From positions 1 to 39,750 of the forward strand of contig CAVYAN010000005.1 in NCBI GenBank assembly GCA_963766075.1: a DNA stretch of 39,750 nucleotides, in the 5' to 3' direction. The notes beneath the pieces were generated by a model, which was not told the origin of the DNA, searched no databases, and saw only the letters and a program-made list of their open reading frames with translations. This DNA comes from an uncultured cyanobacterium (GTDB taxonomy: Bacteria; Cyanobacteriota; Cyanobacteriia; Leptolyngbyales; Leptolyngbyaceae). This document shows positions 10,274 through 28,600 of the stretch, piece after piece (position 1 is the stretch's first letter; each line of letters starts with the position of its first letter). Position numbers and translations under genes: made by a program.

Positions 10274-11130
10274 TACAACGTTTTTCAGGTAAATATGTCA
10301 CAGTCAAATAGCCGTAGATTAGTAGATAGCCATGAAACCTTACCCCATTGAATTGCGAGAAAGAATCATCACGATTTACGAAGCCGGGAACATCTCCATT
10401 CGGAAGCTAGCGGAGCGATTTGCTGTGAGCAAGGGGTTCGTGCAGAAAATGCTGAAACAACAGCAGGAAAAAGGCCACGTCAACCCTGGCAAGCAGGGCG
10501 GCCACATGAAAGGGGAACTCGATGGGCGCGAGGTGGATCTGGCGGCGATGGTGGAGCAGCATCTAGATGCAACCCTGGCCGAGTACTGTGAATATTGGGG
10601 AGAGCAATATGACCAATGGGTTAGTCCGAGCACTATGTGTCGAGCGCTGCAAAAAGCTCGACACACCCTAAAAAAAAAGACCTTACGCAGCACGCAAGCC
10701 GCGACCGAACGGGTGCAAAAACTGAGAGTTGAATACTGGGAAGCGGTGAAAGATATAGCGCCGGAGAATCTGATATTCCTCGATGAGATGGGGGTTTTAC
10801 TGGGTTTGACCCGCACCCATGGGCGTAGTTCGAATTGTGGACGGGAGCCGCAGTAGTAATGGATAATCTAGCGGCGCATAAAATGGCGGCGATTACACCG
10901 TTGATTGAAGCCGCTGGGGCTAGAGTCATTAATTTATCTCCTTATTCGCCAGAGTTTAATCCGATAGAGCTGTGGTGGTCACAACTGAAAGCTTTTCTGC
11001 GAACGTTTTCACCGACGACAACGCAGATGGTCGATACGCTGATTGGAACAGCACTCGATTTAGTGAATTCTGAGCATCTCCGTAACTGGTTTGCTAACTG
11101 TTGTTACTGTATCTCATAAACCTGAAACGT
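10274..11130 (+). mobile_element. IS630-family element, internally deleted, right end damaged
   Basis: Left end TA-CAACGTTTTTCAGGT at 10274. Only ACCTGAAACGT (11120-11130) remains of the right inverted repeat. A transposase lies inside. Confidence 0.85.
10332..11119 (+). pseudogene. IS630 transposase with an internal deletion and frameshift at ~10830
   Basis: N-terminal HTH (MKPYPIELRERI), A-run LKKK and IFLDEMG (first D), then an abrupt jump to LWTGAAVVMDN..LSPYSPEFNPIE. The segment normally between RTHGRS and VVMDN is missing. Confidence 0.85.
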
Positions 11131-11612: not shown

Positions 11613-12041
11613 ATGAAAATCCGATTGGAACGAAGATTGCCAAGTTGTCCTGCAACACTCCCATGCACAGTGTGCCGCCAACCCTTTGCCGTGAATTCGA
11701 TTCGCACGTTACTCTACAGTAATCACGGCTGGTTGAAGGGTGATGTTTGTCCACACTGCCTAAAGCTCAGCCCAGACAAGTTCAAACAACTCCTGTGGGC
11801 CCAATCCGCTCGTCTTCTGAATCCTCCCTCTCCAGGCCCATCCCAAACTCTATTGCGGCATCAAGAGTCCTTAGAATGCTTAGAACTCTCCCAGGAAGAC
11901 CTACACCGCCCGACGGGGTGGCAGTGGTGGCTGAAACGCTTGGCCATCTTTGCCCAGGAGTCCCAAGAGTTAGAAGCTACCCGTCTGGGGTTGAACTCTG
12001 CTAATTCCCCGCAGCGATCGCGCCTGGAAAAACTGTTATGA
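11613..12041 (+). CDS. Hypothetical protein with two CxxC pairs (putative Zn ribbon)
   Basis: 142-aa ORF with an ATG start, CTVC...GDVCPHC, filling an otherwise empty gap. Confidence 0.65.
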   Translation: MKIRLERRLPSCPATLPCTVCRQPFAVNSIRTLLYSNHGWLKGDVCPHCLKLSPDKFKQLLWAQSARLLNPPSPGPSQTLLRHQESLECLELSQEDLHRPTGWQWWLKRLAIFAQESQELEATRLGLNSANSPQRSRLEKLL

Positions 12042-12095: not shown

Positions 12096-12129
12096 AAAAA
12101 ACGAGGCCACCACAGAAATGGTGACCTCG
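12096..12129 (-). terminator. Intrinsic terminator downstream of fmdB
   Basis: Minus strand CGAGGTCACCA-loop-TGGTGGCCTCG followed by T6. Confidence 0.7.
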
Positions 12130-12190: not shown

Positions 12191-12451
12191 CTAATGGGTA
12201 ATCATCCAGGGACGGCCATCGTTACAGCTTTTCGCGCGAGGTTTTTCGGGTTCGCGATCGCGCTTCACTAACTGGGGCTCCGGGTTTTCGCGCTTCAGCC
12301 GCATGGTGCCAGACAGTAGGGCAGGGGGCGAAAAAATCCGGCGTCCCGGCTCGTGGCAGGTTGGACAATGGGCAGGATTGCTCGATTCCACCAGCGATCG
12401 CCACAGGTCAAATACACCACAGGCATCACACCGAAATTCATAAAGGGGCAT
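12191..12451 (-). CDS. fmdB: FmdB-family zinc-ribbon regulatory protein
   Basis: MPLYEFRCDACG...CPTC...RRIFSPP...RPWMITH, directly downstream of the formamidase, with a GGAG SD. Confidence 0.9.
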   Translation of the reverse strand: MPLYEFRCDACGVFDLWRSLVESSNPAHCPTCHEPGRRIFSPPALLSGTMRLKRENPEPQLVKRDREPEKPRAKSCNDGRPWMITH

Positions 12452-12542
12452 ACAGGTCTCCCAGGCAAGGCTGACGAACTCTATTGGGGGGCAGAGGCAG
12501 GGCGATCGACGCATCACCCTGTCTCTCGTACTCAACAAGACA

Positions 12543-13751
12543 CTAAACAGGCAGGATATTTTGATCGAAAATGGCCGTAGGAATGGCAATCGTACAGCAA
12601 GCATTCGGAACATCCACAATGCCGCTGATGCGGCCCTCCACGGGGGCACAGCTTAGCAACAAGTAAGCTTGTTCACCCGTAAATCCGAATTTCTTGAGGT
12701 ATTCAATCGCATTCAGACATGCACGACGGTAGGCAATATGGGCATCCATGAAATATTGCTTACCCGTGAATTCATCCACGGAAATTCCTTCAAATACCAG
12801 GTATTCCGAATAGTGAGGCTCAACCGGACCCGGCTTGAAAATCGGGTTGACCATGCCATATTTTTCCACTCCGCCCTTGATGATATCGACATGCAGGTCA
12901 ATAAAGCCTGACATTTCGATCGCACCACAGAAGGAAATTTCACCATCCCCCTGGGAGAAGTGAATATCGCCCATCGACAGTTTGGCGCCTTCCACATACA
13001 CCGGGAAGTAGATCCGGGTGCCGCGTGACAGGTTCTTGATATCACAGTTGCCGCCATGTTCGCGGGGGGGCACGGTACGGGCTGCTTCTGCGGCGACGCG
13101 ATCGTAGTCGGCTTTGTCCAACGTGCCCAAAATCGCATTGGTGGGATTTGGCAAAGCTGCCAGTACGGGCACCCCATCAATATTTATACCGGCTCCATAG
13201 GTGCGGCGATCGGGCTGGCTAGACATCAACTCCGCTTCCCGCTTGTTCCAGGCGGCTAGCAGGTCGTGGGAGGGCGCACAGCCAATCAACCCGGGATGGG
13301 TAATGCCTGCAAATTTGACACCGGGAATGTGTCGCGACGAAGTGTAAATCCCTTGAAAGTCCCAAATGGCCTTGGCAGCATTGGGAAAATGGTCGGTCAG
13401 AAACCCCCCACCATTTTTGTGATCAAAGATGCCGGTGAATCCCCATTCATCACCCTGGAGAGCGCCAATATCAACTAAATCCACGACCAAAATATCACCC
13501 GGTTCTGCACCATTGACCCAAATAGGACCGCTCAGTACATGAACAACGGATAGGTCAACATCTTTCACATCACTGGGATCATCATTATCTTTGATCTGAC
13601 CATCGGTCCAGTCTTTACACTCAATCCGAAAGACATCGCCCGGATTTACCGAGACGACAGCGGGAATGTCAGGGTGCCAGCGGTTATGACCGGGCAATTC
13701 CTGTTGATCCATGGGTTTGGTCAAATCGACTTTGAACAGAGTCTTAGGCAT
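12543..13751 (-). CDS. fmdA: Formamidase (acetamidase/formamidase FmdA family)
   Basis: HNRWHPDIP, ECKDWTDGQI, HPGLIGCAPS, RTVPPREHGGNCDIKNLSRG, GDIHFSQGDGEISFCGAIEM, GIVDVPNAC; GAGGAG SD. Confidence 0.96.
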   Translation of the reverse strand: MPKTLFKVDLTKPMDQQELPGHNRWHPDIPAVVSVNPGDVFRIECKDWTDGQIKDNDDPSDVKDVDLSVVHVLSGPIWVNGAEPGDILVVDLVDIGALQGDEWGFTGIFDHKNGGGFLTDHFPNAAKAIWDFQGIYTSSRHIPGVKFAGITHPGLIGCAPSHDLLAAWNKREAELMSSQPDRRTYGAGINIDGVPVLAALPNPTNAILGTLDKADYDRVAAEAARTVPPREHGGNCDIKNLSRGTRIYFPVYVEGAKLSMGDIHFSQGDGEISFCGAIEMSGFIDLHVDIIKGGVEKYGMVNPIFKPGPVEPHYSEYLVFEGISVDEFTGKQYFMDAHIAYRRACLNAIEYLKKFGFTGEQAYLLLSCAPVEGRISGIVDVPNACCTIAIPTAIFDQNILPV

Positions 13752-13847
13752 GAAATTCTCCTCGTTCTACACACTAACGCATAGCAAAATCGTCAGACCG
13801 GGCGGGGCAGGTACAATAACTGCCCCCTATACCGGTATTCATTCTCC

Positions 13848-15491
13848 TCAAGCCGGTGCTGCCTTACAGGCATCGTGGCATTGGGCGTCGAGACTGCAAC
13901 AGAGTGAACAAATCGAGCCTTGATACACGGGGCAGTAGGCCATATCCTCGCGCTCGTATTCGTACTCGCAAATCGAACATTCGGTCAGCTCAGCAACCTC
14001 TGGGTTATCACGGAAATTGACATCTTCGCGAGCAATGTAGTATTTGCCCTTGGTGATCACCGCAATGATGGGGGATAGGATAAAGGAAATACCCAGAGCG
14101 ATAAACGTCGAAAATGCCTGAGCCGCTGGACCCATCAGCCCAAAAAAGGCAATTACAGAGATCACCGAACCCACAACCATGGAGCCAAACCCGACCGGAT
14201 TGAAGTCGTACAAATGAGCGCGTTTGAACTCAATGTAGGAGGGGCTTAAGCCTAAGGGTTTGTTGATCACCAAGTCCGCAACCAGGGCACCTACCCAGGC
14301 GATCGCCACGTTGGAATAGAAGCCCAAGACCCATAGCAGTACTGAAAACACACCCATCTCTTGCAAGGTCAGGGCGATGATCAGGTGAAACACCAGCCAA
14401 ACGACGCGACCGGGGTGGGCGTGGGTTAACCGAGAAAAGAAGTTCGACCAGGATAGCGAACCCGAGTAGGCGTTCGTAACGTTGATTTTGACTTGGGACA
14501 AGATCACGAAAACCGTTGCCAGGAACATGAATACGGCAGGGTCGGGGAAGATTTCCTTGAACCCTTCGATGTACATGTGAATCGGTTCGTTGGCTTTGGC
14601 AATATCGACGCCGTTTTTGACTGCGATCGCCGTGAAGAAGGCACCCGCCCACTGTTTCCACGCGCCCAAAATCACCCAACCCGGACCAGCGACCATGACC
14701 GCCGTCCACCATTTGCCCTTGTTTTGCTCCGTCAAATCCGGCATGAACCGCAGGTAATCAACCTGCTCTCCAATTTGAGCAATTAAGGAAAGTGCAACCC
14801 CAGCTCCGGTGGCACAGAGGAGAATGTCAAACCCGGAACCACTCGGAGAGGTTCCCCCAAAGCTAAACCAGGTAGACAACGCTGTTGGATCCTTGATCAA
14901 CACGGCAAACCAAGGCGCAAACATCCCCAACAACCAAATGGGTTGCGTCCACACCTGCAACTGGGCCAGCAGGGTCATGCCAAAGACCACCAGCGGGAAA
15001 ATCGCCACGGTACAGAGCAGATAGCCCCACATTAGGGGCAGACCGAAATAAATTTCGATTGCCTGGGCCATGATCGCCCCTTCTAGGGCAAAGAAAATGA
15101 AACAAAATGAGGCGTAAATTACCGATGTGAGGGTAGAGCCGATATACCCAAAGCCTGCGCCCCGGGTCAGCAAATCCATGTCAATGTTGTAACGGGCGGC
15201 GTAGTAGGAAATTGGAATCCCCGTGACAAAGATAATGACGGCGGCAATAAAGATTGCCCAGAAGGAGTTGGTGAATCCGGAACTGATGGCGATCGAACCC
15301 CCGATCGCAAAATCCGCGAGGTAGGAAATCCCCCCGAGAGCAGCGTTCGCTACCGTAAACTCAGACCATTTGCGAAATGAACGGGGCGCATAGCGAAGCG
15401 AATAGTCCTCTAGGGTTTCATTCACAACCCAAGAACTGTAATGGCGTTTTGATTTTTCTAATCGAGCACTAGCGGCTTCGGTTCTACTCAT
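13848..15491 (-). CDS. Purine-cytosine permease (NCS1)-like multi-TM transporter with C-terminal Cys-rich domain; putative amide/urea-type importer
   Basis: About 12-13 hydrophobic segments, ETLEDYSLRYAP, DMDLLTRGAGFGYIGST, QIGEQVDYLRF, KINVTNAYSGSL and an 8-Cys tail. ATG 15491 has a GAGG SD. Lies immediately upstream of fmdA. Confidence 0.85.
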   Translation of the reverse strand: MSRTEAASARLEKSKRHYSSWVVNETLEDYSLRYAPRSFRKWSEFTVANAALGGISYLADFAIGGSIAISSGFTNSFWAIFIAAVIIFVTGIPISYYAARYNIDMDLLTRGAGFGYIGSTLTSVIYASFCFIFFALEGAIMAQAIEIYFGLPLMWGYLLCTVAIFPLVVFGMTLLAQLQVWTQPIWLLGMFAPWFAVLIKDPTALSTWFSFGGTSPSGSGFDILLCATGAGVALSLIAQIGEQVDYLRFMPDLTEQNKGKWWTAVMVAGPGWVILGAWKQWAGAFFTAIAVKNGVDIAKANEPIHMYIEGFKEIFPDPAVFMFLATVFVILSQVKINVTNAYSGSLSWSNFFSRLTHAHPGRVVWLVFHLIIALTLQEMGVFSVLLWVLGFYSNVAIAWVGALVADLVINKPLGLSPSYIEFKRAHLYDFNPVGFGSMVVGSVISVIAFFGLMGPAAQAFSTFIALGISFILSPIIAVITKGKYYIAREDVNFRDNPEVAELTECSICEYEYEREDMAYCPVYQGSICSLCCSLDAQCHDACKAAPA

Positions 15492-15861
15492 TTGACCTCT
15501 TTTCAACCGATTTAATGATGTGATGACAGGGCAATTGTTGAAGATAGCAGGATAGTCAGAATTATTGAATCGAGGTGTATCCCATCCAATGGCAACTATC
15601 ACAGTTGGCATTGGACAAATAGTCCAAAGAGGTTTTTTAACGTCAACATAGAAGTTACTTGTGTAGAGTTATTTGCATGGAGAATTCGAGAACGAGCCAA
15701 CGAGTAATTAAAAACCTTGCCCCAGGCTTCGGCTAGGAGCGGATCTCCTGGAGATCCGACTCCACAATGCGAGGTGGAGCCTTTGCCTGGGAATTCCCAG
15801 GCGGAACCTATTAGCCTGGTAAGGGTTGGTTATGCACCGGATTGCCCTGTGCGGGAAGCAA

Positions 15862-15945
15862 GCTACGACTACGCTCAACCCTCATTGTCCCAGTGGGCTG
15901 AACGCTGTCGTAGCATTGCCCCAGTGGGCTGAGCGTAGTCGAAGC
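15862..15945. repeat. REP-like palindromic element with an internal 31-bp duplication
   Basis: Arms GCTACGACTACGCTCAACCC / GGGCTGAGCGTAGTCGAAGC (18/20 complementary). CATTGyCCCAGTGGGCTGA occurs at 15883 and 15914. Confidence 0.75.
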
Positions 15946-15972
15946 CCTACCCATGCCCTAAGATTGCGTGAA

Positions 15973-16437
15973 CTAATGGGAATGGTGTGAGGGATGGACA
16001 TGCGGCAGGATAATGTAAAGCTGGTCGGGCGTATTCTCTAAAGCTCTAACTTCTGCGGTGGCGGGGATGGGCATGCCCTCGGCGATTAACGTTTCTTTGG
16101 GATGGGCCAGGAGGTGAGACTTGAATCCGGCATCTTGGGAGGCTCGCAATAAAATGCGCGATCGCACCGCCCGTTGGGGATAGATTGATCCCAAGGACTC
16201 CTGCAACTGTTGCAGTTCCGTCTCCGTCATCAAGGGGAGTACGAAAAAAATCTGACCCGGTTGACTTTCTAAAACCGTCACCTGTTGCGATTCTGGAATG
16301 GGGATTGCCATATCCTGAAGAATGGCCTTGGGATTCACGAGCAATTGTGCCCGAAACTCCGGTTGATGGATGGCTTGGGCAATCACCTGGATGATCGATG
16401 GGGTGGGCGGTGGCAGAGTGGTCGATGGCATAGACAT
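15973..16437 (-). CDS. Protein of two tandem NHLP-leader / nitrile hydratase alpha-like repeats with a His-rich tail
   Basis: Repeat 1: VIAQAIHQPEFRAQLLVNPKAIL..IPIPESQQVTVLESQPGQIFFVLP. Repeat 2: ILLRASQDAGFKSHLLAHPKETL..MPIPATAEVRALENTPDQLYIILP. Ends HVHPSHHSH. Confidence 0.8.
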   Translation of the reverse strand: MSMPSTTLPPPTPSIIQVIAQAIHQPEFRAQLLVNPKAILQDMAIPIPESQQVTVLESQPGQIFFVLPLMTETELQQLQESLGSIYPQRAVRSRILLRASQDAGFKSHLLAHPKETLIAEGMPIPATAEVRALENTPDQLYIILPHVHPSHHSH

Positions 16438-16511
16438 GGTGAATCCTGTGTGATGATAGAGATACTTTTATGGGCTGCTCAAGCTGATGCTCAATTTGAT
16501 TTCCACGCTCG

Positions 16512-17168
16512 TCAGGCGGGTTGTCTAAGGGCTGATATTTTGGGCTGTACCGGTTGCTCCGATGCTAAAATTTCTAGGGCTCTGAGGCGAACTTGATAGG
16601 TTTTCCAGCGCGATTTGTGGGTTGTTTCCTGGGCGAGATGGCATAGAACATCGTAAAGACTGTTGCAGGCGGACCGGAATGAATAGCCGAACTGGATTGC
16701 CAAGGCGATCGCTTGCTGATCCGCCGCTGCCGCCTCTCGGAGGCTTTGTTCACCGCGATGCCGCTGATACAGTTGATTGCCTGCTAATCCAGCAACGACC
16801 AAACCCAGGACGAGCAGAATAATATTCTGCGCGGCTACTTCGGTGAGTGAGAAGGCCAGCCCCCCAATCATTACAGGCATTTCCCAGGCAAAATGGTTAA
16901 CCGTGCGGTGTTGAATGCGGGCCACTTCGTGCCAAAACAGCAAGTCGCGTTGATGGGTGGGGAGCCTCCCCCAACTCACCCAATCGACTTGAATGGCAAA
17001 CTGCTGTTTGCCGATGCGCGCTGTCGTAATTAAGGCTGGATTGACATCGGGCGATCGCACGATTTTGATATTAGATAGCCGCATCTGGGATGCCCAGTCC
17101 AAGGGCAACAGTCCATCCAATCGCTGCACTTCATCAATTTCCGTCAACCATTTCGTTTGAGCCTTCAC
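16512..17168 (-). CDS. DUF3318-like cyanobacterial membrane protein
   Basis: EVQRLDGLLP, QRDLLFWHEVARIQ, two TM helices, AADQQAIALAIQFGYS, YQVRLRAL. GTG 17168 with GGAG SD chosen; alternative start TTG 17189. Confidence 0.75.
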   Translation of the reverse strand: MKAQTKWLTEIDEVQRLDGLLPLDWASQMRLSNIKIVRSPDVNPALITTARIGKQQFAIQVDWVSWGRLPTHQRDLLFWHEVARIQHRTVNHFAWEMPVMIGGLAFSLTEVAAQNIILLVLGLVVAGLAGNQLYQRHRGEQSLREAAAADQQAIALAIQFGYSFRSACNSLYDVLCHLAQETTHKSRWKTYQVRLRALEILASEQPVQPKISALRQPA

Positions 17169-17665
17169 AACTGAATATCTCCACTCCAAAGGGGATTAAA
17201 AGAATCGAATAAACTAATCATAGAAATCAATGAGAAACCTATCGAGAATCGGATTTCCCTGAAATCTGATTCAAGCAACAGGGTTAAAGCAATACGGTTT
17301 GAGAGCGATAACTGCAAACAACTGCTCCGCAGACTGCAAGCTCTTCAGACTCGTTTACAGGAAGACCAACCTGACCGATTCTTAAAGAGCGATAGAGCTG
17401 TTACCGATTTCCCAAGGCCTGTCTGCGTGTAAGCAGAAGGGGCTATGTGGATATGTGCAGGGTGAATATCTGCGTAGGCACCCAGCCCCCTGAAGCATGG
17501 GTGAAAAAGATAACTTATCGATAGCCAACCTTACTTCTGAGAAGCGTGCTTCCGAGAACCTTAGTTCCCGAGAACCTTAGCTCTTGAACACTGGATTGAT
17601 AGCAGAGGGTATGTAGTCGTCCGTGATTTGTAGCTGAATCATAGGGAATCGTTCTCTATGATTTT

Positions 17666-17708
17666 GTATACTGGTCTACAAATTAATTATTAACTGGTTA
17701 ACTATCTT
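17666..17708 (+). promoter_or_regulatory. Canonical NtcA-activated promoter: GTA-N8-TAC plus -10 box
   Basis: tttTGTA-TACTGGTC-TACAaat (GTA at 17666, TAC ending 17679), then 23 nt, then TATCTT (TAN3T) at 17703-17708, pointing to the sensor kinase gene. Confidence 0.8.
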
Positions 17709-17945
17709 GCAAAAAACTGTCTTACTACGTCTCAGTATCGACAATCAAGGGGGGAAATGTGGTCATCTTGTGAGAAAACCGTGTCCACCGCTACTGAAGG
17801 GAGTTCCATTGACCTTGACAATACGAAAATATTTTTTATTTCACTGCTTGCCTAGCCCTATTCCCGCCGCCCTATTCTCTCAATACGGATCCGTGCCCTC
17901 CATGCTGCTCCATGCTGACCTTCTAGAATTAGAGCTCTGACCCCT

Positions 17946-20803
17946 ATGGCCATTCAGCCCAGCTCAAAAGTTGCTGAGGATCGGCGTAAATACAACACTT
18001 GGGTAGCCACGGAAACCCTCGAAGACTATGCGTTGCGATTTGCCCCCCAGTCTTTTCGGCGGTGGTCGGAGTGGACAGTGGCCAATACGGCGATCGGGGG
18101 ACTGTCGTTTTTGGCGTTGGAAGCCATTGGCGGCTCTATTACTATTCGTTACGGGTTTGCCAATTCCTTCTGGGCGATCGTCGTCGTGGGCCTGATCATT
18201 TTTCTGACAGGATTGCCGATCGCCTACTATGCCGCCAAGTACAACGTCGATATGGATTTGTTGACGCGGGGTGCAGGCTTTGGCTACATCGGCTCCACGA
18301 TTACATCCCTGATCTACGCCTCTTTTACCTTTATCTTCTTTGCTCTAGAATCCGCCATTATGGCGCAGGCGCTGGAATTGTATTTTCAGTTGCCGCTCCC
18401 CATCGGTTATGTCGTGTGTTCCCTGGTGATTATTCCCCTGGTGTTTTTTGGGGTGACTCTGATTAATCAATTGCAATTTTGGACCCAACCCATTTGGATT
18501 GGTCTGATGGTGCTGCCCTATCTCTGTATTTTGTACAAGCAGCCGGAAGCCGTTACCGACTGGCTCCACTTTGCCGGAGAGTCGGGGAGCGGCGCTAGAT
18601 TTGATCCCCTGTTGTTTGGGGAGGCGGCGACGATTTCCTTTTCCTTGATTGCCCAAATTGGAGAGCAGGTGGACTATCTGCGCTTTCTTCCCAATAAGCA
18701 GGCGAGCAACCGCCGCTCCTGGTGGTTAGCCCTGCTCTTGGCGGGTCCGGGCTGGATTCTTTTTGGCTGTGCTAAGCAATTGGGGGGTTCATTCTTGGCG
18801 ACCTTGGCCATCAGCCATGGGGTGAGCCTGGAAAAGGCAAAAGAGCCAACGCAAATGTATTTGGTGGGATTTGAGTATGTTTTTAGCAATCCGGCGGTGG
18901 TGCTGGCAGTCGTTACGCTGTTTGTCCTGATTTCGCAGATCAAAATTAACGTAACCAATGCCTATGCTGGGTCCTTGGCTTGGTCCAACTTCTTCTCGCG
19001 CCTGACCCACAGCCATCCAGGCCGGGTGGTATGGTTAGTCTTTAATGTGGCGATCGCCCTTCTACTTATGGAGCTCGGGGTGTTTGCTACCTTGGAGGCC
19101 GTGCTAGGACTCTATTCCAATGTGGCGATCGCGTGGGTCGGTACATTGGTGGCCGACCTAGTGATTAATAAACCCCTTGGCCTCAGCCCCCCCATATTGA
19201 GTTTAAGCGCGCCCACCTCTACCACATTAATCCGGTGGGGTTTGGCGCGATGGCGATCGCCTCCCTTGTTTCCATCCTGGCCTTCTGGGGCCTATTCGGG
19301 GAGATTCCCAAGGCCTTTGCCTCTTTTATTGCCCTCGGCTTAGCTTTGCTTCTGGCTCCAGCGATTGCCCTCCTGACCAAAGGTAAATATTATATTGCGC
19401 GGGCAGACACCTATTCGAGAACCCTATACAATGATCCCAACGAGCCTTCCACGCAGTGCAATATCTGTGAGCAAGTCTACGAACCCCCGGACATGCTCTA
19501 CTGCCCGGTCTATGCCAGTCCGATTTGTTCCCTTTGTTGCAGCTTGGATGCCTGTTGCCACGATGCCTGCAAAGTTGCCGTCGAACCTGTCGAAATTGCT
19601 GTGCCTCCCCACGATGCCCCCTCTGTGACTGCCGTTTCTACCCTATCGGGTGGGCGGGCATTTTCTTATCCAAATTTGTCCCATAAAGTTTCGCCCCAGT
19701 TCGGCAATCGCTTTCTCAGGTACCTCTGGGTGTTTATCTCCCTATCGGGAATTGCCGGAGCAGCCTTGGCCTTTGTGTATCATCAGCAGATGGTGGCGGC
19801 AGCAGCCCTGCCCTCGATCACCATCAAGCATTTGACAGCAACGCTGCTGGGAGCCTACGGCATTTTTCTAGTTCTGATTGGGATTGGGTCTTGGTGGTTG
19901 GTCCTGACCCAGGAAAGTCGGCAATTGGCCCAGGAAGAACTGGATCAGCGCAATCTGCAATTGCAGCAAGAGGTCCAGGAGCGGCTCTTAGCCGAGACGC
20001 AACTCCAGGAAAAAGCCCAACAGTTAGAGAAAACCCTCTTGGAATTGCAGCAGGCCGAGGCACAACTAATTCAAACCGAAAAAATGGCGGCCTTGGGGGG
20101 ACTCGTCGCCGGGATTGCCCACGAGATTAACACGCCGATCGGCATTGGGGTAACGGCGGCCTCTTTGTTGATGGAGAAAACCGAGGCATTTTCCGCCCTA
20201 TCTAAGACCGGGACCATGAAGCGATCGGACTTAGAAAGGTTCCTAGACATCGCGCAGCAAAGCAGTCGGATGGCCTTGACCAATCTGAATCGAGCCGCCG
20301 AGCTGATCCAAAGCTTCAAACAGGTGGCGGTCGATCAGTCCAGCGAGTCGAAGCGGGTTTTTAATGTCAAGCTGTACCTTGAGGAAATCTTGTTGCAGTT
20401 GAGTCCAAAGCTCAGGGCAACGCCCCATCATATTGTCGTTGAGTGCGATCGCAGCCTCACCTTCAACAGCTATCCTGGTGCCTTCTCGCAAATTGTCACC
20501 AATTTAGTGCTTAACTCCCTGCTGCATGCCTTTGCCCCCGATCAATCCGGCGCAATTACCTTGACAGCCCGCCGGAGCCACACCCACCTGCTCTTTGAAT
20601 ACGCCGACAATGGCTCTGGCATTGCCCCTCCGCACTTGGATAAAATTTTTGATCCCTTCTTCACCACCAAACGCGGCCAAGGCGGCAGTGGCCTCGGGCT
20701 ACACATCGTCTACAACCTTGTCACCCAAAAACTCGGCGGCACCATCCAATGCGAAAGTCAGCCCGGTCACGGCACCAAATTTATCATCACCCTTCCGTTC
20801 TAA
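17946..20803 (+). CDS. Histidine kinase with an N-terminal NCS1-like permease domain and Cys-rich domain (transceptor type); one-base frameshift at C7 run 19187-19193
   Basis: ORF 17946-19343 aligns by eye with the 13848-15491 permease up to INKPLGLSP. The other frame continues IEFKRAHLYHINPVGFG as in the paralogue, then the Cys domain, 2 TM, coiled coil, H-box GIAHEINTP, N-box NLVLNS, DNGSG, FDPFFTTK and GSGLGL. Confidence 0.9.
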
Positions 20804-20890
20804 TCCGACTCCATACCCTCCTAGAGTATTTTTAACAGCACTCCGTGCCGCTACGCTAGAGCATTTTTAGTTGTCCCCTTTCCCTGGCCC

Positions 20891-22039
20891 ATGACTCCCT
20901 TCCTGCCAGCAGATGATGACGATGAAATTCGGTTTGCTGCCGAGACGGAACCCAGCCCACCCGCAGCCAGTTGGAAGATTCTGATTGTGGATGATGAAGC
21001 GGAAGTCCACAGCATTACCCAACTGGCGCTGCGGGATGTCACTTTTGCAGGGCGATCGCTCAGCTTCATCAGCGCCTATTCGGCCCAGGAAGCCAAACAC
21101 CTGATTCAAGTCCACCCAGATACCGCCATTATTTTTCTGGATGTGGTGATGGAGAATGAAAGTGCGGGGCTGTATTTGGTTAAATACATTCGCGAGGAAT
21201 TAAATAATCCACTGGTCCGGATTATTTTGCGAACAGGACAGCCCGGTCAAGCCCCGGAAGAGGTGGTGGCGGTCAATTATGGCATTGACGACTACAAAAC
21301 TAAAACGGAACTGACCGCCCAGAAATTGGCGATCGCGGTGATCACAGCCCTGCGGGGTTTTTCGACCCTAATGCATTTGCTAGACGACAGTCGTCATCTA
21401 GAGTCGGAGCTGATCCAGCATAAACAGCGGGAAATTGAGCTGCGGATCAGTGAAATGAGTGCGATCGACAAAGTGCAGCAATTGGAGCAATCCTTGCAAT
21501 CCCTGCGGCAAACCCAACTGCAATGGCGCGACCGCCCCACGGGCCTTCGCCCCAGTCCCCTCAGCCAAAAAGTCACCGAAACCACTCAGGAACTGATTAA
21601 TCTCCCTGCCGCCACTGACAGCTTTCAAACGGTTTCCATCGTCACGCGGTTGGCCCGCATGGTCCTGCGGATCACCGATGAACATGCAGCACGGCTCGGA
21701 CTCTCGCAAACCAAACTGGCCGTGTTGATTTGCCTCAGCGGTGAAGCGGAACTCTGTGCCAGTCCTTCGGATTTGGCCAAGCATTGCGGGGTGTCCCGCG
21801 CCGCCATGACCGGACTTCTGGATGGCCTAGAGCAAGATGGGTATGTCGAACGCGACAGTCACCCCTCCGATCGCCGCGCTTTAATGATCAAACTCACTCC
21901 TAAAGGCCAGCAGTTTCTTGAATGGCTTACCCCCCAGGATCAGTATCAACTGTCGGAAGTGATGGATGCCCTCAGCGACGCCGAGCGTCAGAAGTTGATG
22001 GAATTAGCCCTCAAGTTGACTCAAATGTTCGCGGCATAG
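20891..22039 (+). CDS. Response regulator: REC domain, coiled coil, MarR-type wHTH
   Basis: KILIVDDE, IFLDVVME (phospho-Asp), ILRTGQPG and DDYKTK. The C-terminus has GLSQTKLAVL..SPSDLAKHCGVSRAAMTGLLDGLEQDGYVER..SDRR..LTPKG. Confidence 0.9.
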   Translation: MTPFLPADDDDEIRFAAETEPSPPAASWKILIVDDEAEVHSITQLALRDVTFAGRSLSFISAYSAQEAKHLIQVHPDTAIIFLDVVMENESAGLYLVKYIREELNNPLVRIILRTGQPGQAPEEVVAVNYGIDDYKTKTELTAQKLAIAVITALRGFSTLMHLLDDSRHLESELIQHKQREIELRISEMSAIDKVQQLEQSLQSLRQTQLQWRDRPTGLRPSPLSQKVTETTQELINLPAATDSFQTVSIVTRLARMVLRITDEHAARLGLSQTKLAVLICLSGEAELCASPSDLAKHCGVSRAAMTGLLDGLEQDGYVERDSHPSDRRALMIKLTPKGQQFLEWLTPQDQYQLSEVMDALSDAERQKLMELALKLTQMFAA

Positions 22040-22059
22040 AGCCGGATGTGGCGTAAGGC

Positions 22060-22153
22060 GGAATTAAAAGTTAAAAATGTAAAATTAAAAACGGTGAGCC
22101 CGTAGGCGGGCCGGACCGGCTTGTTTAATTTTTAATTTTGCATTTTTAATTCC
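22060..22153. repeat. Inverted heptamer (STRR-like) array flanking a GC-rich core; MITE-like hairpin
   Basis: GGAATTAAAA-GTTAAAA-ATGTAAA-ATTAAAA ... TTTTAAT-TTTGCAT-TTTTAATTCC with CCCGTAGGCGGG in the centre. Confidence 0.7.
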
Positions 22154-22240
22154 ACCCAAGTTTATGGTGAAATGAAGTCTGGAGCGATCGCCTCCACGCA
22201 CATCTATTTCACGCATTTTTAACTCACACATTTTTAATCT

Positions 22241-23468
22241 ATGAACGCTTCCATGAACGCTGTCCTTCCGTTCGCTGCGGTTTTTGCCCTCACCAGTTTT
22301 ACCCTAGCGGGGTGTGGTCCGTCGGGTTCCCAGCCTGGTACGGATGCATCGTCATCGGGAACAGGCAATGCTGGGGCGATCGCGATCGGTATTGGTGTCG
22401 CCCAAACCAGCAACGTAGCCCTGCTGGGACAGGAGCAGGTGGCCGGGGCCAAAATTGCCGAGAAATATTTTAACGACAAGGGTGGCATTAACGGCGTTCC
22501 GATTAAGCTGGTGTTTCAGGATACGTCGGGGGATGAGCAAGGCGCAGTGAATGCCTTTCAAACCTTGATCACCAAGGATAAAGTCGTGGGCATTGTGGGA
22601 CCAACTCTCTCTCAGCAGGCTTTTGCCGCCGATCCCATTGCCGATCGCGCCAAAGTGCCTGTCCTTGCCCCCTCCAATACAGCCAAAGGTATTCCCCAGA
22701 TTGGGGACTTTATCGCCCGCATATCCGCCCCGGTCGTGGTTGTTGCTCCCAACTCCGTTAAAGCCGCCCTCAAAATCAATCCCCAAATCAAAAAGGTTGC
22801 GGTTTTCTTTGCCCAAAATGATGCGTTCAGCAAATCAGAAACCGAGATTTTCCAAAAGACCGTCCAGGATCAAAACCTCGATCTCGTGACGGTGCAAAAG
22901 TTTCAAACCACCGATACGGACTTTCAAACCCAGGCCACCGCAGCAATTAACTTGAAACCGGACCTAGTGATCATTTCCGGACTGGCGGCGGATGGGGGCA
23001 ATTTGGTGCGGCAACTGCGCGAGTTGGGCTACAAAGGCGTGATCATTGGCGGCAATGGCCTGAATACCTCCAATGTTTTTTCCGTCTGCAAAGCCTTGTG
23101 CGATGGGGTGCTGATTGCCCAGGCGTATAATCCCCAGCAGGCAGGGGCGGTGAATCAAGCCTTTCGCGAAGCCTACAAAGCCCAGTTCAAGAAAGAACCG
23201 CCCCAGTTTAGTGCCCAAGCCTTTACGGGGGTGCAGGTATTTGTGGAGGCGCTACAAGCCGTCGAATCGCCAAACCAAAGTGGGGCAAAAACCCCTGGCC
23301 GATTTGCGCGTTGCCCTGAATCAGCAACTCTTAACGGGCAAGTACAGCACACCCCTCGGTGATATTTCCTTTACCCCAGAAGGCGAGATTGTGCAGAAAG
23401 AGTTCTATGTGGCCCGGATCAAAATGGATGCGGATGGCAATAATGGTCGATTCGAGTTTTTGAACTGA
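22241..23468 (+). CDS. Liv/Nat-type (branched-chain amino acid/amide family) ABC substrate-binding lipoprotein, copy 1; extra A at 23265-23266
   Basis: Lipobox LAGC, GGINGVPIKL, GIVGPTLS, DGGNLVRQLRELGY. The paralogue has GTC GAT CGC where this copy has GTC GAA TCG C, and the C-terminus continues in ORF 23211-23468. Confidence 0.9.
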
Positions 23469-23494
23469 AGAAATCGGACGACCGAGACTGCTCC

Positions 23495-23633
23495 CTTCGA
23501 CTCCGCTCAGGCATCCACCTTTCGCTGGCTGAGCGTCAGGGATCCATCTTTCGCTGGCTGAGCATCAGGAATCCATCTTTCGCTGGCTGAGCGGAGTCGA
23601 AGCCAGCTTGCGTCCTGAGCGAAGTCGCAGGAC
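23495..23633. repeat. REP-like element with three tandem 29-bp internal units
   Basis: Perfect 16-bp IR CTTCGACTCCGCTCAG (23495) / CTGAGCGGAGTCGAAG (23587). Units TCAGGnATCCAyCTTTCGCTGGCTGAGC start at 23507, 23536 and 23565. An extra hairpin copy lies at 23612-23633. Confidence 0.85.
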
Positions 23634-23781
23634 AAAACATCTAGGGGCGTTCTGGAGTTGCTAATTATGATCGTCGCTAAATTCGAACTGCGGTTGTGAT
23701 TTATTACATCTTTTATAAAAATTAGATGCCAAATACTTTACAAGTACAAATATTTTTAGATGTTATTTGATTATAAAGTTG

Positions 23782-24996
23782 ATGACTAAATTATTCTCCA
23801 TTTCTCGGACGCTTCGGTCAATGCTGGGATGCTTGACCGGAGTGTGGTTATTATCTAGTTGCCAAGCGTCTTCCAATAGTCCCGCCCAAACAACTGTTTC
23901 CCAACCCATTCCCATTGGCATTGCCCTGGCCCAAACCAGTAATCTGGCGCTACTGGGGCAAGAGTCTGTCAATGGCGCTAAGATCGCGGAAGACTATTTC
24001 AATGCACGCGGGGGCGTGAATGGTACGCCCATCCAATTGATTTATCAGGATGCAGGCGGTGATGAAACTGCGGCAATTAATGCCTTCCAAGCCCTGATCA
24101 ATCAAGCCAAGGTCGTAGGCATTGTAGGGCCATCGTCCTCACAGCAAGCCTTTAGTGCTGACCCGATCGCCGATCGCGCCCAAGTGCCGGTGGTCGGCCC
24201 CACCAACACCGCCAAGGGCATTCCCGAAATTGGGCCATTCATTGCCCGCGTTGCGGCTCCGGTGACGGTGCTGGCTCCCAATTCCCTGAAGGCAGCACTG
24301 AAATTGAATCCGAGGATTCGGCGGGTAGCGGTGATGTATGCCCAGGACGATGCCTTTAGCAAGTCGGAAACGGCCATTTTTCAGCAAGCGATTCAGGCAC
24401 AAAAGCTGGAGACGATCACGATCCAGAAGTTTCAAACCACCGATACCGATTTTCAGGTGCAATCCACTACGGTGATTAACTTGAAGCCGGATCTGATTGT
24501 GATTTCTGGTCTGACGGCGGATGGCGGCAACCTAGTGCGGCAATTGCGGGAATTGGGCTATGCCGGGGTAATTGTTGGCGGCAATGGGTTCAATACGCCG
24601 AATCTGTTTCCACTGTGCAAACGGTTGTGCGATGGCATTCTGGTGGCTCAGGCTTACAGTCCTGCCCATGGGAATGCGGTGAATCAAGCTTTTCGGGCGG
24701 CCTATAAGCAGCAGTACAAAAAGGAGCCGCCCCAGTTCAGCGCCCAAGCCTTTACGGCGGTGCAGGTGATGGTGGAGGCGCTGCAAGCGGTCGATCGCCA
24801 AAGCAAAGTGACGGGGCGATCGCTGGCCGCTGCCCGAATCAGTTTGAATCAGAAGATTCTGGCAGGGCAGTATGATACGCCATTGGGCCAGTTGACTTTT
24901 ACTCCTGAGGGGGAAGTGATCCAACAGCAATTTTATGTGGCCCAGATTCGGATGAATGCCGAGGGCACCCAGGGAGAGTTTGTTTTTCTGCCCTGA
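23782..24996 (+). CDS. Liv/Nat-type ABC substrate-binding lipoprotein, copy 2
   Basis: Lipobox LSSC; closely paralogous to copy 1 along the whole mature protein. Confidence 0.92.
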   Translation: MTKLFSISRTLRSMLGCLTGVWLLSSCQASSNSPAQTTVSQPIPIGIALAQTSNLALLGQESVNGAKIAEDYFNARGGVNGTPIQLIYQDAGGDETAAINAFQALINQAKVVGIVGPSSSQQAFSADPIADRAQVPVVGPTNTAKGIPEIGPFIARVAAPVTVLAPNSLKAALKLNPRIRRVAVMYAQDDAFSKSETAIFQQAIQAQKLETITIQKFQTTDTDFQVQSTTVINLKPDLIVISGLTADGGNLVRQLRELGYAGVIVGGNGFNTPNLFPLCKRLCDGILVAQAYSPAHGNAVNQAFRAAYKQQYKKEPPQFSAQAFTAVQVMVEALQAVDRQSKVTGRSLAAARISLNQKILAGQYDTPLGQLTFTPEGEVIQQQFYVAQIRMNAEGTQGEFVFLP

Positions 24997-25086: not shown

Positions 25087-25566
25087 CTAGGATTCCAGCG
25101 CCGCATTCAGTGCCTCTACTTCATTAATGGCTAGTTCCAGTTCCAGTTGGTCTTGGGCCAGTTGCTGCTCTTGCTGATAGTGACGTAATGCTTCTGCGAT
25201 CGTGAGTTGCAGATCAATATCGCTCCAGGGTTTGGCCAGAAACCGGTAGAGGTTTCCCCGATTGACCACATTACCCACATCTTCGGCTCGTGCCTGTCCC
25301 GTTAGCATCACTTTTAAAATATGGGGATAACGGGCATGGAGTTCAATCAAAACCTGATCCCCCTTCATCCCTGGCATAATTTGGTCAGCAATGACCAGCG
25401 GAATTTCTACCCCCTCAGCGACGAGTTCCTCGACTAGGGCCAATGCCTCGCCTCCACTTTCGGCGATTTCAATCGCATACCCCGGAAAATATCGCATTAA
25501 TTGAGTTCTCAGGGTGAAGAGAACATTTTGTTCATCATCAATACAGACAATGGTGGGATAACTCAT
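25087..25566 (-). CDS. Response regulator receiver protein with a short coiled-coil tail
   Basis: IVCIDDE, LVIADQIMPGMKG, MLTGQA, FLAKPW. Confidence 0.9.
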   Translation of the reverse strand: MSYPTIVCIDDEQNVLFTLRTQLMRYFPGYAIEIAESGGEALALVEELVAEGVEIPLVIADQIMPGMKGDQVLIELHARYPHILKVMLTGQARAEDVGNVVNRGNLYRFLAKPWSDIDLQLTIAEALRHYQQEQQLAQDQLELELAINEVEALNAALES

Positions 25567-25684
25567 AACGGGTTTCTAGATAGGACGTTGCTTATTAATC
25601 AAGAAGGGTGAGATGACTCGGCTCCGAATCACTCTTCTCCAAGTGCTGGATTGCTCATTATTGACAGAGTGTCCAATCGGAAAG

Positions 25685-28600
25685 CTATGAAGAATCGTGT
25701 GGTTGCGCATTTGGCAACGGCAACCACACGGTGAAAGTCGTTTGCCCCGATTGGCTGTGTACTTGAATATCACCCGCGTGCTTTTGGACAATCTGGCGAA
25801 CAATATCCATGCCAAGGCCACTTCCCTCACCCCGAAGCTTGGTGGTAAAAAACGGTTCAAAAATTCGTGATTGGATGGCTTCGGGAATGCCACCGCCAGA
25901 ATCGGTCACCGACACTGCTACTTGGTTGGCTTGCTGAATCACTTGAAGCTCTAACTGACCCTGCTCAGGCATAGCATGAAGGGCATTATCGATGAGATTT
26001 ACCCACACCTGGGTCAACTCATCTGGGTTGCACAGAATGGGGGACACTGCATCATAGTAACGCACGACTTTAATGCCTTGATTGAGACGATTTTGGTATA
26101 GCGTCAGCGCCACTTCCAGACTATCGGTGATTTGAACGAGACTTTGCTCGCTGGCATCGCTGCGATGGCTATAGGTTTTAAGGGCAAAGACGATCTTAGC
26201 GGCCCGATTGACTTCCTGTTGAATGTTAAGGGCACTTTGAGATTGTAATACAAGGTTGCATGCAACTTGCAAAATCTCATGACAGTTGGGAGCTTGCAGA
26301 ATGGACTGATAGGATGTCAGGGCGGATCCGCCTAACTGCAACAGGGTCAGTTGAGTGGCAATAGTGTGGACGTTGCTAATGCCTTGAGTTTCCAGGGCCG
26401 TTTGAAACTGCCGCCGCTGTTGCCGTTCTTCTCGGGTCGAGAGGGCTGGTTGGGGGTGCAGCGCTGTACTCACCAAGGCCAAAAAATCTGCGTGCTGTTG
26501 AGGAGAGAGCTTTTGCAAAAGCATCGGCAACTGGTGGAGAGTGGCATGAAAGCCCGCCATCATATTACTGGTTGCACCCCGAATCACGCCTAGAGGAGTA
26601 TTGATTTCGTGGGCGATGCTGGCGGTGAGTTGTCCTAAAGCCGCCATCTTTTCAAATTGGATCAGTTCTGCCTGGGTGGCTTGCAGGTCGGTTAAGGCTT
26701 GCGATAGTTCTTCAGTGCGTTCCGCGACGCGTGCTTCCAGGGTTTGGGAATATTCTTCGAGTTGGTAATTCGCTTGCGCTAGCTGTTGAGTCTGATGTTG
26801 AAGTTGCGCTTCAGTGGCTTTGCGATCGCTAATATCGCGAATAATAGTAGACACATACTCCAGCGTGCCATCGGCAGACTTGTGTGCCATCACCCGTTGA
26901 GAGACTGGTAACTCCTGCCCATTGGGAGCCAAGAGTCCCGTTTCTCCAAACCATTGCCCCTGTTGCATAACCTGTGGTAATCCCTTTTGGTGGAAAAGTT
27001 CATTCGCCCAGTCAGGATGAAATTCTCGGATGGAATGGTTTGTCAGTTGTGTATTGGGCGCAAAGTTGCAAAAGCGATAGAATGCCTGGTTCATCCAGAT
27101 GATTTTGCCGTCAAGGCTAGCGATGCCGATGAAGTCAGAGGAGGATTCTAGGATGGTGAGTAGGCGATCCTGTTTCTGTTCTAAAAGTTTGCGATCGCTA
27201 ATATCGAGCAAAACACCATTCCAGGTTACCAACCCGTCAGCCTGTCGTTTGGGCTGGGAGGCAACCTGCACCCATTTCACCTTTCCGGTCGGTGTAACAA
27301 TGCGAAATTCTTCTCGAATCGGGGTGAGCTGCTGCGCTGACTGGCGGAGCACTTGGACAATCTGAGGACGATCATCCGGATGTTCAAAATCCCGCAGGCT
27401 ATATTGCCCTGAAATCATCGCCTCGGCAGGCACTTCATAGATCTCATAGCACCCAGAACTAATATAAGAGGTGAAAGAAGAGCCATCTTCAGGATTCATG
27501 CAAATTTGGAAAATCACACCCAGCAGATTATCCGATATGGTTTGGAAGCGGGCTTCGCTAGAACGCAGATGGGCGAGTGCTTGTTGAGATTGTTGATAGA
27601 GTTGAGCATTCTCTAGGGAAATGGCAGCTTGGGCACAGAGGATATTGAGGATGGCAAGGCGATCGCGCGTAAACGCCCCCACGGTTAAACTATTTTCTAG
27701 ATATAAAACCCCCAGTAATTGTCCTTGCTTGAGAATGGGATTGCATAGAATGCTCTTGGGTTGATGTTGAGCAAGATAGGGATCACCGGCAAATTGTGGA
27801 TTGTCGCACGCATCATTCACCACGATCGGTTCTAAACTATGTTTGGCTTGATTGACTAAACTAATTGCTACCGCGTCACTTAATTCTAAAGGGATAGGAG
27901 ATGAGAAGATGTGTGTGGGTTTTCCTGCTGCTACTGAGGCGACAATTTGTAATGTTTGGTCGGATTGTAAAAGTAAGACGCATTTATCAGCACCCGCATT
28001 GATAACGGTAATGTTTAAAAGCGTTTCCAGAAGTTTTTCCAGCTCTATTTCCCCTGAAATTGCTTGAGAAGCTTTGAGGAAGGTTGCTAGGTCGAGGGCT
28101 TCAGCATCACTGCTAACCGCTGTAATCGTATCTTGCTCAGGCCAACTAGAGGCATAAGTTCTCTGTAAAATCGTGACCAGGAGGTGGGGATAACGCTGCT
28201 TTAAGTCGGCGACTTTAGCGATCGCGCCCCAACGCACATACCCATAATACGCCTCAGTCATATAGACTTGGGCGATTTTTTCTTTGCCCCAGTCCACATA
28301 AAATCTAGCCGCAAGTTCGTTGGCTAGGGCTTCTTCTTGGATATATCCATGCTCTTTTGCTGTAGCGATCGCCCCATTGTAGAGAGCCATTGCCTGACTC
28401 GATTTCCCCAGCACTCGCAAGCGCTCAGCTTCTAATAGAAAAACTTTATTTTGATAATTCATGGGTGCCGATTTTGCCAACTTCGTCAGATGTTTGATCG
28501 TCGCCATGACTTTTCTGAGATTGGCTTTTTGGGGCTTTTGAGATAGGGCAGAGCACTGTGCGAGCCAGACCAAAGCGGCGTAAAAATAAAACAGCGTCTT

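Follow-up and report, generated by a model that had tools for sequence, protein, structure and literature searches.

The 39,750-nucleotide contig CAVYAN010000005.1 (assembly GCA_963766075.1, positions 1 to 39,750 of the forward strand), analyzed here in full as the window, belongs to an uncultured cyanobacterium of the Leptolyngbyaceae whose genome assembly measures 5.0 Mb and is 85% complete; the gene content and the names of relatives agree with a cyanobacterial origin. It carries a divergent locus for the use of amide nitrogen (Table 1), in which a minus arm encodes a DUF3318 protein, an NHLP-like protein (154 amino acids), a CodB-fold permease, FmdA and FmdB and ends in a terminator-like hairpin, while the plus arm encodes a permease-fused histidine kinase, a REC-MarR regulator, and two Liv-type binding proteins. 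Between the arms lie an NtcA box, a −10 box, and a 20-bp palindrome. The genes that the original prediction named are all present where it placed them, with fmdA, fmdB, DUF3318, the REC-MarR gene, and the Peripla_BP_6 pair recognized by profile scores. The promoter of the minus arm is probably a two-input switch, in which the REC-MarR protein would block NtcA until the kinase senses a small amide, and the two inputs most likely meet at this one promoter instead of acting in cascade.

Within the window, the palindrome sits 6 bp upstream of the NtcA box, which is itself flanked by TAN3T on both sides. A GTA-N8-TAC consensus and the class II layout, with NtcA activating from position −41.5, are described in the available part of PMC3898017, and this canonical arrangement (GTA-N8-TAC, a spacing of about 22 nt, and TAN3T) is found here on the minus strand, running from 17679 to 17638. 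In the alignment of relatives, the conserved side is the one bearing a TATGAT-like box 22 nt off that faces DUF3318 or amiE (aliphatic amidase). The 22 promoters that were tabulated share a single order of palindrome, gap of 2–6 bp (13 bp once), NtcA box, 22 nt, and TAN3T, and the NtcA box carries one mismatch in two of them. The original prediction had assigned this promoter to the plus arm; the conserved −10 box points to the minus arm instead, and it is this arm that the promoter is predicted to serve through binding of NtcA.

The distribution of the pattern was followed across a comparison sample of 400 other genomes of the same class, 22 of which contain the REC-MarR regulator. The full palindrome–NtcA–(−10) pattern occurs in 17 of these 22 genomes, a figure that is partly circular and drawn from related, hence not independent, genomes, compared with one of the 103 fmdA genomes lacking REC-MarR and none of 125 in a reversed control. 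A first composite pattern that missed the short gaps had matched 12/22 versus 3/378 genomes (reversed control 9/400), and its three outside matches do not lie at amide genes. A fresh test started from 47 fetched loci; 19 duplicates of earlier loci were dropped and seven MarR-only loci were set apart, and 20 distinct REC-MarR loci were left. The full pattern is present in 12 of the 20 and in none of the seven MarR-only loci. Where an amide gene is in view, 11 of 13 REC-MarR loci have the full pattern and the other two the palindrome only, and each of the 13 sites whose target is visible is oriented towards amiE, fmdA, or the DUF3318–permease arm. Genomes that have the permease arm without REC-MarR (G014, G054, G232, and G140) show no palindrome there, the best candidates having 5–6 mismatches, and in G140, G254, and G338 similar palindromes directly precede stand-alone marR genes, as would be expected of MarR-type operators. 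In G140, one such stand-alone marR gene (L029, 6220–6780), with two related palindromes upstream, adjoins fmdB-fmdA-permease and is possibly a kinase-free version of the switch.

The sensor–regulator pair is also linked to amide genes by position. Fifty-four loci were fetched around matches to the permease/kinase family, comprising 23 type-A kinases (sharing 69% identity or more with the kinase core encoded in the window), 21 type-B kinases (about 30%), and 10 free permeases or contig-cut pieces. A REC-MarR gene is adjacent in 19 of the 23 type-A loci, and an fmdA, amiE, or urtA-like gene lies within the fetched stretch in 15, so that the neighborhood linkage that the original prediction proposed as a check is conserved; among the type-B loci, both counts are 0/21. 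The complete gene set of the window occurs together in just 4/54 loci, and the commoner setting of the pair is beside amiE (scoring 703 against a cut-off of 427), fmdAB, and an UrtA-like ABC (ATP-binding cassette) operon. The proposal of formamide as the specific signal is not supported, amiE being the commonest target. Across the sample, the permease family is found in 49/400 genomes, fmdA in 123/400, and both in 35/400; because 103 of the 123 fmdA genomes lack REC-MarR, the proposed amide-gated control of fmdA would be a minority add-on. The REC-MarR matches that bear an organism name are all cyanobacterial among the 120 matches listed. The receiver residues D34/D35, D84, T115, and K138 are conserved in the 12 REC-bearing alignment rows and the H, N, G1, and G2 boxes of the kinase are all present; kinase and regulator carry the hallmarks of a two-component system, and phosphotransfer between them is predicted.

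Table 1. Features of the divergent amide locus in the window.
Feature	Coordinates	Strand	Evidence or remark
Terminator-like hairpin 3′ of fmdB, likely end of the amide operon	12102..12129	-	12 pairs, T-run; consensus match only
fmdB, zinc-ribbon protein, 85 amino acids	12191..12448	-	TIGR02605 47.5 vs cut-off 31.3; PF09723
fmdA, formamidase, 402 amino acids	12543..13751	-	NF045496 667.5 vs equivalog cut-off 500; PDB 2wkn 'formamidase' E 1.6e-166
Free CodB/NCS1-fold permease, ~547 amino acids, eight-cysteine C-terminal tail	13848..15488	-	Start taken from relatives
Tandem NHLP-leader-like protein, His-rich tail	15973..16437	-	TIGR03793 97.5 vs cut-off 50.9, matched over two stretches
DUF3318 membrane protein, leading gene of the minus arm	16512..17189	-	PF11780; start codon uncertain; heads the same arm in relatives
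TATGAT −10 box directed towards the minus arm, 22 nt off the NtcA box	17638..17643	-	Spacing of 22 nt in all 22 tabulated promoters
NtcA box GTA-N8-TAC	17666..17679		Consensus match; one of 2 such boxes in the window
20-bp palindrome, consensus ATAGTTAA-N4-TTAACTAT	17686..17705		2 mismatches here; predicted REC-MarR operator
Histidine kinase: whole permease-like sensor domain, Cys8 segment, two further membrane helices, HisKA, HATPase	17946..20803	+	Split by a frameshift in this assembly
REC-MarR response regulator, 382 amino acids	20891..22039	+	PF00072 + PF01047
Two tandem Liv/Nat-type binding proteins, Peripla_BP_6	22241-24996	+	68-72% identical to each other

The N-terminal part of the kinase is 63% identical to the free permease of the window, and both carry a Cys8 segment, whose eight cysteines are invariant across 58 free homologues. 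The description of this permease as NCS1-like holds for its fold: the AlphaFold (AF2) model (pLDDT 80, pTM 0.83) is closest to CodB (Z 31.8, root-mean-square deviation 3.9, 397 aligned), followed by Mhp1 (Z 24.6) and a next match at 23.4, while SLC5 chains reach Z 19–23. It does not extend to Pfam, where none of the 58 homologues matches PF02133, the NCS1 family, and the permease of the window has no match at all; sequence searches against the PDB gave nothing meaningful, and profile comparison with NCS1 gave a weak match (277 columns, P 0.005). The free permease is predicted to be an amide importer. For the sensor of the kinase, PRK11017 matches at E 9e-6 only, no SSF (SLC5) family is matched in Pfam, and a Pfam scan, with the linker region not folded, finds no STAC domain, the Cys8 segment following the transporter domain. 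The kinase does not appear to be a recent local copy of the adjacent permease; in a quick tree that excluded contig-cut kinases, the sensor domains cluster together, apart from cyanobacterial free permeases.

Kinases of this family also occur in other settings. Type-B loci (L030-L044, L050, L052, L055, L060, L062, L017, and L020) have neither an amide gene nor REC-MarR nearby; two adjoin nitrate-type ABC and narB-like genes, and two precede a REC-PAS-GGDEF-EAL gene. Two type-A kinases (L016 6091–8034 and L047 6889–8445) have a REC-histidine kinase hybrid downstream in place of REC-MarR, and their genomes lack the full promoter pattern. Downstream of amiE there is frequently a pair of tubulin/FtsZ-like genes, then a small unknown gene and cobW (L053 14352–18031, L048, L051, L063, L092, L109, L129, and L143).

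Taken together, these observations are consistent with a switch in which the REC-MarR protein would bind the palindrome and, from a distance of 2–6 bp, keep NtcA off its box. The kinase would bind a small amide (formamide, acetamide, or similar) through its transporter-like domain and alter the phosphorylation of the regulator, freeing the promoter, which NtcA with 2-oxoglutarate would then activate under nitrogen shortage; the permease would import the amide and FmdA would release ammonia from it. Since the promoter pairs an NtcA box with a second conserved site, expression would require both nitrogen shortage and a small amide, and the original prediction's appeal to NtcA and to two inputs finds inferential support here. 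A small amide is the presumed ligand because such compounds are a substrate or product common to FmdA, AmiE, and nitrile hydratase, and repression is presumed because a site 2–6 bp from the NtcA box with variable spacing suits blocking better than activation. MarR proteins are mostly repressors.

The predicted regulon extends beyond the locus to amiE and the UrtA-like ABC importer and, in two genomes, to cobalt-uptake and nitrile hydratase genes. Searching with nothing but the DNA pattern turned up sites on contigs that lack the regulator; these lie before amiE (G092, G083, and G113), DUF3318 (G337), and, in G233, cobW-cbiM-cbiQ plus a nitrile hydratase operon. The best other copy in the genome under study (G000:C75:11102, one mismatch) is flanked by a cbtB-like gene and an FGE-cobW-nthB-nthA operon. 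An NtcA box with one mismatch is 3 bp away, and the −10 of this box is directed towards the cbtB side. The evidence for the copy is its position, judged after the fact, and one chance site is not rare, as 7 of 40 permuted palindromes have a one-mismatch site in this genome. On balance, and with modest confidence, a dedicated cyanobacterial amide/nitrile regulon is favored, in which an NCS1-type transceptor kinase would act through a REC-MarR anti-activator to gate NtcA at one operator, with the formamidase, aliphatic amidase, amide importers, and cobalt–nitrile hydratase genes as targets. The nitrile hydratase genes would make amides from nitriles. The C75 locus itself (G000:C75:10500–15700; L066 6200–12700) contains a full nitrile hydratase operon of FGE-like, cobW, nthB, nthA, and accessory genes, divergent from the cbtB-like gene and two unknown membrane proteins, and neither it nor the window has an Rfam match at the gathering threshold. 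A nitrilase-family gene 34% identical to amiE, which is perhaps an AmiF-type formamidase, lies on a palindrome-free contig of the same genome (G000:C65:40325–41227).

Beyond the circularity and relatedness behind the count of 17, the chance rate of permuted sites, and the broken kinase frame taken up below, several observations weigh against both the switch and the regulon. Five REC-MarR genomes lack the full pattern; G005 retains half a palindrome, G162 has the 13-bp gap, G248 has a palindrome without an NtcA box, the promoter of G303 lies beyond its contig, and the site in G038 stands upstream of an unrelated PPC-domain gene. In G278, amiE has the full pattern, yet kinase and REC-MarR were not found, the site lying at a contig end. 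In four genomes that have both REC-MarR and nitrile hydratase, the palindrome is absent from the region that was checked, and on its own the palindrome is weakly specific, its reversed controls matching 7/27 and 5/27 genomes.

One alternative keeps the same parts and the same two-input promoter and gives phosphorylated REC-MarR the role of a co-activator for NtcA and RNA polymerase, like that of NtcB at nirA. The site does occupy a place from which co-activators act, on the upstream side of a class II NtcA box, the commonest gaps of 5–6 bp set the two centers about two helical turns apart, and the transporter-fused kinases CrbS and RpuS act through activators, according to the accessible text of PMC9100948. 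Co-activation by NtcB, however, depends on a spacer of 15 bp and does not tolerate a change of ±5 bp (bioRxiv 2022.10.10.511513, available part), whereas gaps of 2, 3, 5, 6, and 13 bp occur at the palindrome. Genomes that lack the regulator, moreover, still have plain NtcA-type boxes in front of amiE or the permease (G232 and G054). These points, together with the prevalence of repressors among MarR proteins, make co-activation unlikely.

The sensor could also be a pseudogene in this strain, which would leave the operon locked in one state and would be compatible with the two-input model in relatives. The frame of the kinase is broken in a run of seven C at 19187–19193, the neighboring first binding-protein gene is frameshifted as well (near 23270–23295), and a search among longer proteins gave no intact, nearly identical kinase (best match 72%; cluster look-ups gave singletons). 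A look-up of sequencing runs for 17500–23500 of the window listed none. The kinase fusion described in the original prediction is thus in two pieces here, although in relatives it is one frame: the 44 loci classed as kinase fusions have a single frame of ~920–1070 amino acids, bar one cut by a contig end. On the other side, the break falls within a homopolymer, the halves are still 85% and 72% identical to an intact relative, and frameshifts affect 10 of 97 distinct conserved genes of the assembly, a set that we take to include homologues of a photosystem I core gene, glutamate synthase, and argC. The only dnaE of the genome is likewise fragmented (L066 3274–5623). With dnaE and about one in ten conserved genes frameshifted, split genes in this assembly should be doubted, and because other conserved genes, including dnaE and the photosystem I core gene, are also broken, an assembly error is the likelier cause of the break in the kinase and a true pseudogene is improbable.

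A circuit built as described but answering to a signal other than a simple amide, such as urea, a nitrile, a cyanide-derived compound, or a product (ammonium or formate), would fit the UrtA-like ABC operons that flank 8 of the 23 type-A loci and the site at nitrile hydratase and cobalt genes in two genomes. The site is, however, associated with the arms that carry amiE and fmdA, the linked binding proteins reach 424 against an UrtA cut-off of 493, and most linked urtA-like promoters lack the palindrome, so another signal is distinctly improbable. The cascade of the original prediction, in which NtcA would transcribe the kinase–regulator pair and the pair alone would then induce the permease–formamidase arm, is very improbable: an NtcA box does lie between the arms and could serve both ways, with TATCTT at 23 nt on its kinase side in the window as well as in two relatives, but 14 of 24 kinase upstream regions (one of them just 84 bp long) lack an NtcA box, the −10 faces away from the kinase in eight of the 10 that have one, and the TAN3T (TATCTT) found towards the kinase in three regions is the edge of the palindrome, the same reverse TAN3T standing at amiE promoters without a divergent gene.

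The two-input switch would act on a minus arm whose FmdA is a formamidase by equivalog score, with hydrolysis of formamide predicted. The 154-residue protein described originally as NHase-alpha-like is not a nitrile hydratase subunit, scoring 38.5 against 249.85 for TIGR01323 and containing no cysteine where metal-binding cysteines are expected; it is a tandem NHLP-leader-like protein, and the true nthA of the genome is located on contig C75. Seven homologues show just a short His-rich tail after the leader and no core peptide of a ribosomally synthesized and post-translationally modified peptide (RiPP), family scans of the window proteins found no RiPP-modifying enzymes in the locus, and the ESM Atlas gave only leads scoring below 0.9. 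The DUF3318 and NHLP-like proteins accompany the free permease. Sigma-70 and terminator scans gave numbers close to the shuffled level (15 versus 11.4 and 23 versus 15.6). Short repeats with many genomic copies interrupt the gap between the NHLP-like and permease genes (15490–15970) and trail the first binding-protein gene (23470–23640). Convergent with fmdB, a 142-residue, cysteine-containing gene without a family match (11613–12041) has homologues beside the permease arm of several relatives (L013, L023, L024, L027, L028, and L146).

The two binding proteins were originally counted as part of the system, and this membership falls away: they score 28 and 33 bits against 493 as components of an UrtA/FmdD-type system, and homologues are present in 0/54 related loci. 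The tandem genes have no membrane partners beside them; a matching LivH-like gene lies on contig C96, and in two of five genomes searched, homologues precede a LivH-like permease gene (labelled from sequence). The stretch that separates the regulator from the first binding protein (22040–22240) holds a long inverted repeat, rich in AT and single-copy in the genome, which has no Rfam match, folds well (z −3.7), and may terminate the kinase–regulator transcript or serve as a leader. Elsewhere, the window contains an IS630-type transposase in two frames (10332–11119), a 2135-residue Ser/Thr kinase-AAA-GAF-PAS-His kinase with a single-domain receiver (25087–32092), and a split HlyD-type gene (601–2027).

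Several known systems share parts of this design. CbrA/CbrB, CrbS/CrbR, and RpuS/RpuR likewise fuse a whole LeuT-fold transporter domain to a histidine kinase, and RpuS/RpuR induces a transporter operon by way of a conserved motif in the promoter (PMC13022988 and PMC9100948, available text). In comparison with CbrA, CrbS, and RpuS as those sources present them, the sensor here is CodB/NCS1-like instead of SLC5, carries a Cys8 segment, shows no STAC domain in the Pfam scan, is partnered with REC-MarR, and has nitrogen-scavenging genes under NtcA as its predicted targets. At nirA, as the accessible part of the study describes it (bioRxiv 10.1101/2022.10.10.511513), NtcA at −41.5 is likewise joined by a pathway-specific regulator upstream for two-input control by nitrogen source, but NtcB is a LysR-type activator bound as a tetramer at −100 to −64. 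The present regulator differs from NtcB-type co-activation in being a REC-MarR protein, predicted to repress, and in the 2–6 bp that separate its site from the NtcA box. The fmdCABDEF genes of Methylophilus methylotrophus similarly combine fmdA-fmdB with amide uptake genes and are induced by formamide or urea and repressed by ammonia, although uptake there is by a porin and an ABC system, and the available portion of the review names no sensor kinase (PMC10781810). In Arthrospira PCC 8005, fmdA and nitrile hydratase (nthAB) rise under nitrogen limitation, though in the available text they do so without amide in the medium (PMC4509649 and PMC8400943).

In searches that reached few subscription journals and no supplements, the literature contained no description of the REC-MarR regulator, its operator, or an NCS1-fused kinase. 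A precedent for repression is the acetamidase operon of Mycobacterium smegmatis, in which AmiA, a negative regulator of the MarR family, reportedly holds the amidase off until amide is present; sensing there is said to use AmiC, with no kinase, receiver domain, or NtcA.

Should the proposed circuit prove correct, NtcA promoters would have, as far as could be found, their first substrate-sensing two-component system. For NtcA promoters that have a substrate-specific partner, NtcB at nirA is the best-known case, and the locus would add a second design based on a two-component system and probably on repression. The promoter could also be put to use in cyanobacteria as a switch inducible by amides. 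For the use of amide and nitrile nitrogen in some cyanobacteria, a candidate sensor, regulator, and DNA site can now be named, which suggests that these compounds are met often enough to merit sensing. The family of permease-fused kinases is widespread and, as far as the literature searched reaches, has no characterized member, and the locus would, if the circuit holds, supply it with a testable set of sensor, regulator, and DNA site.

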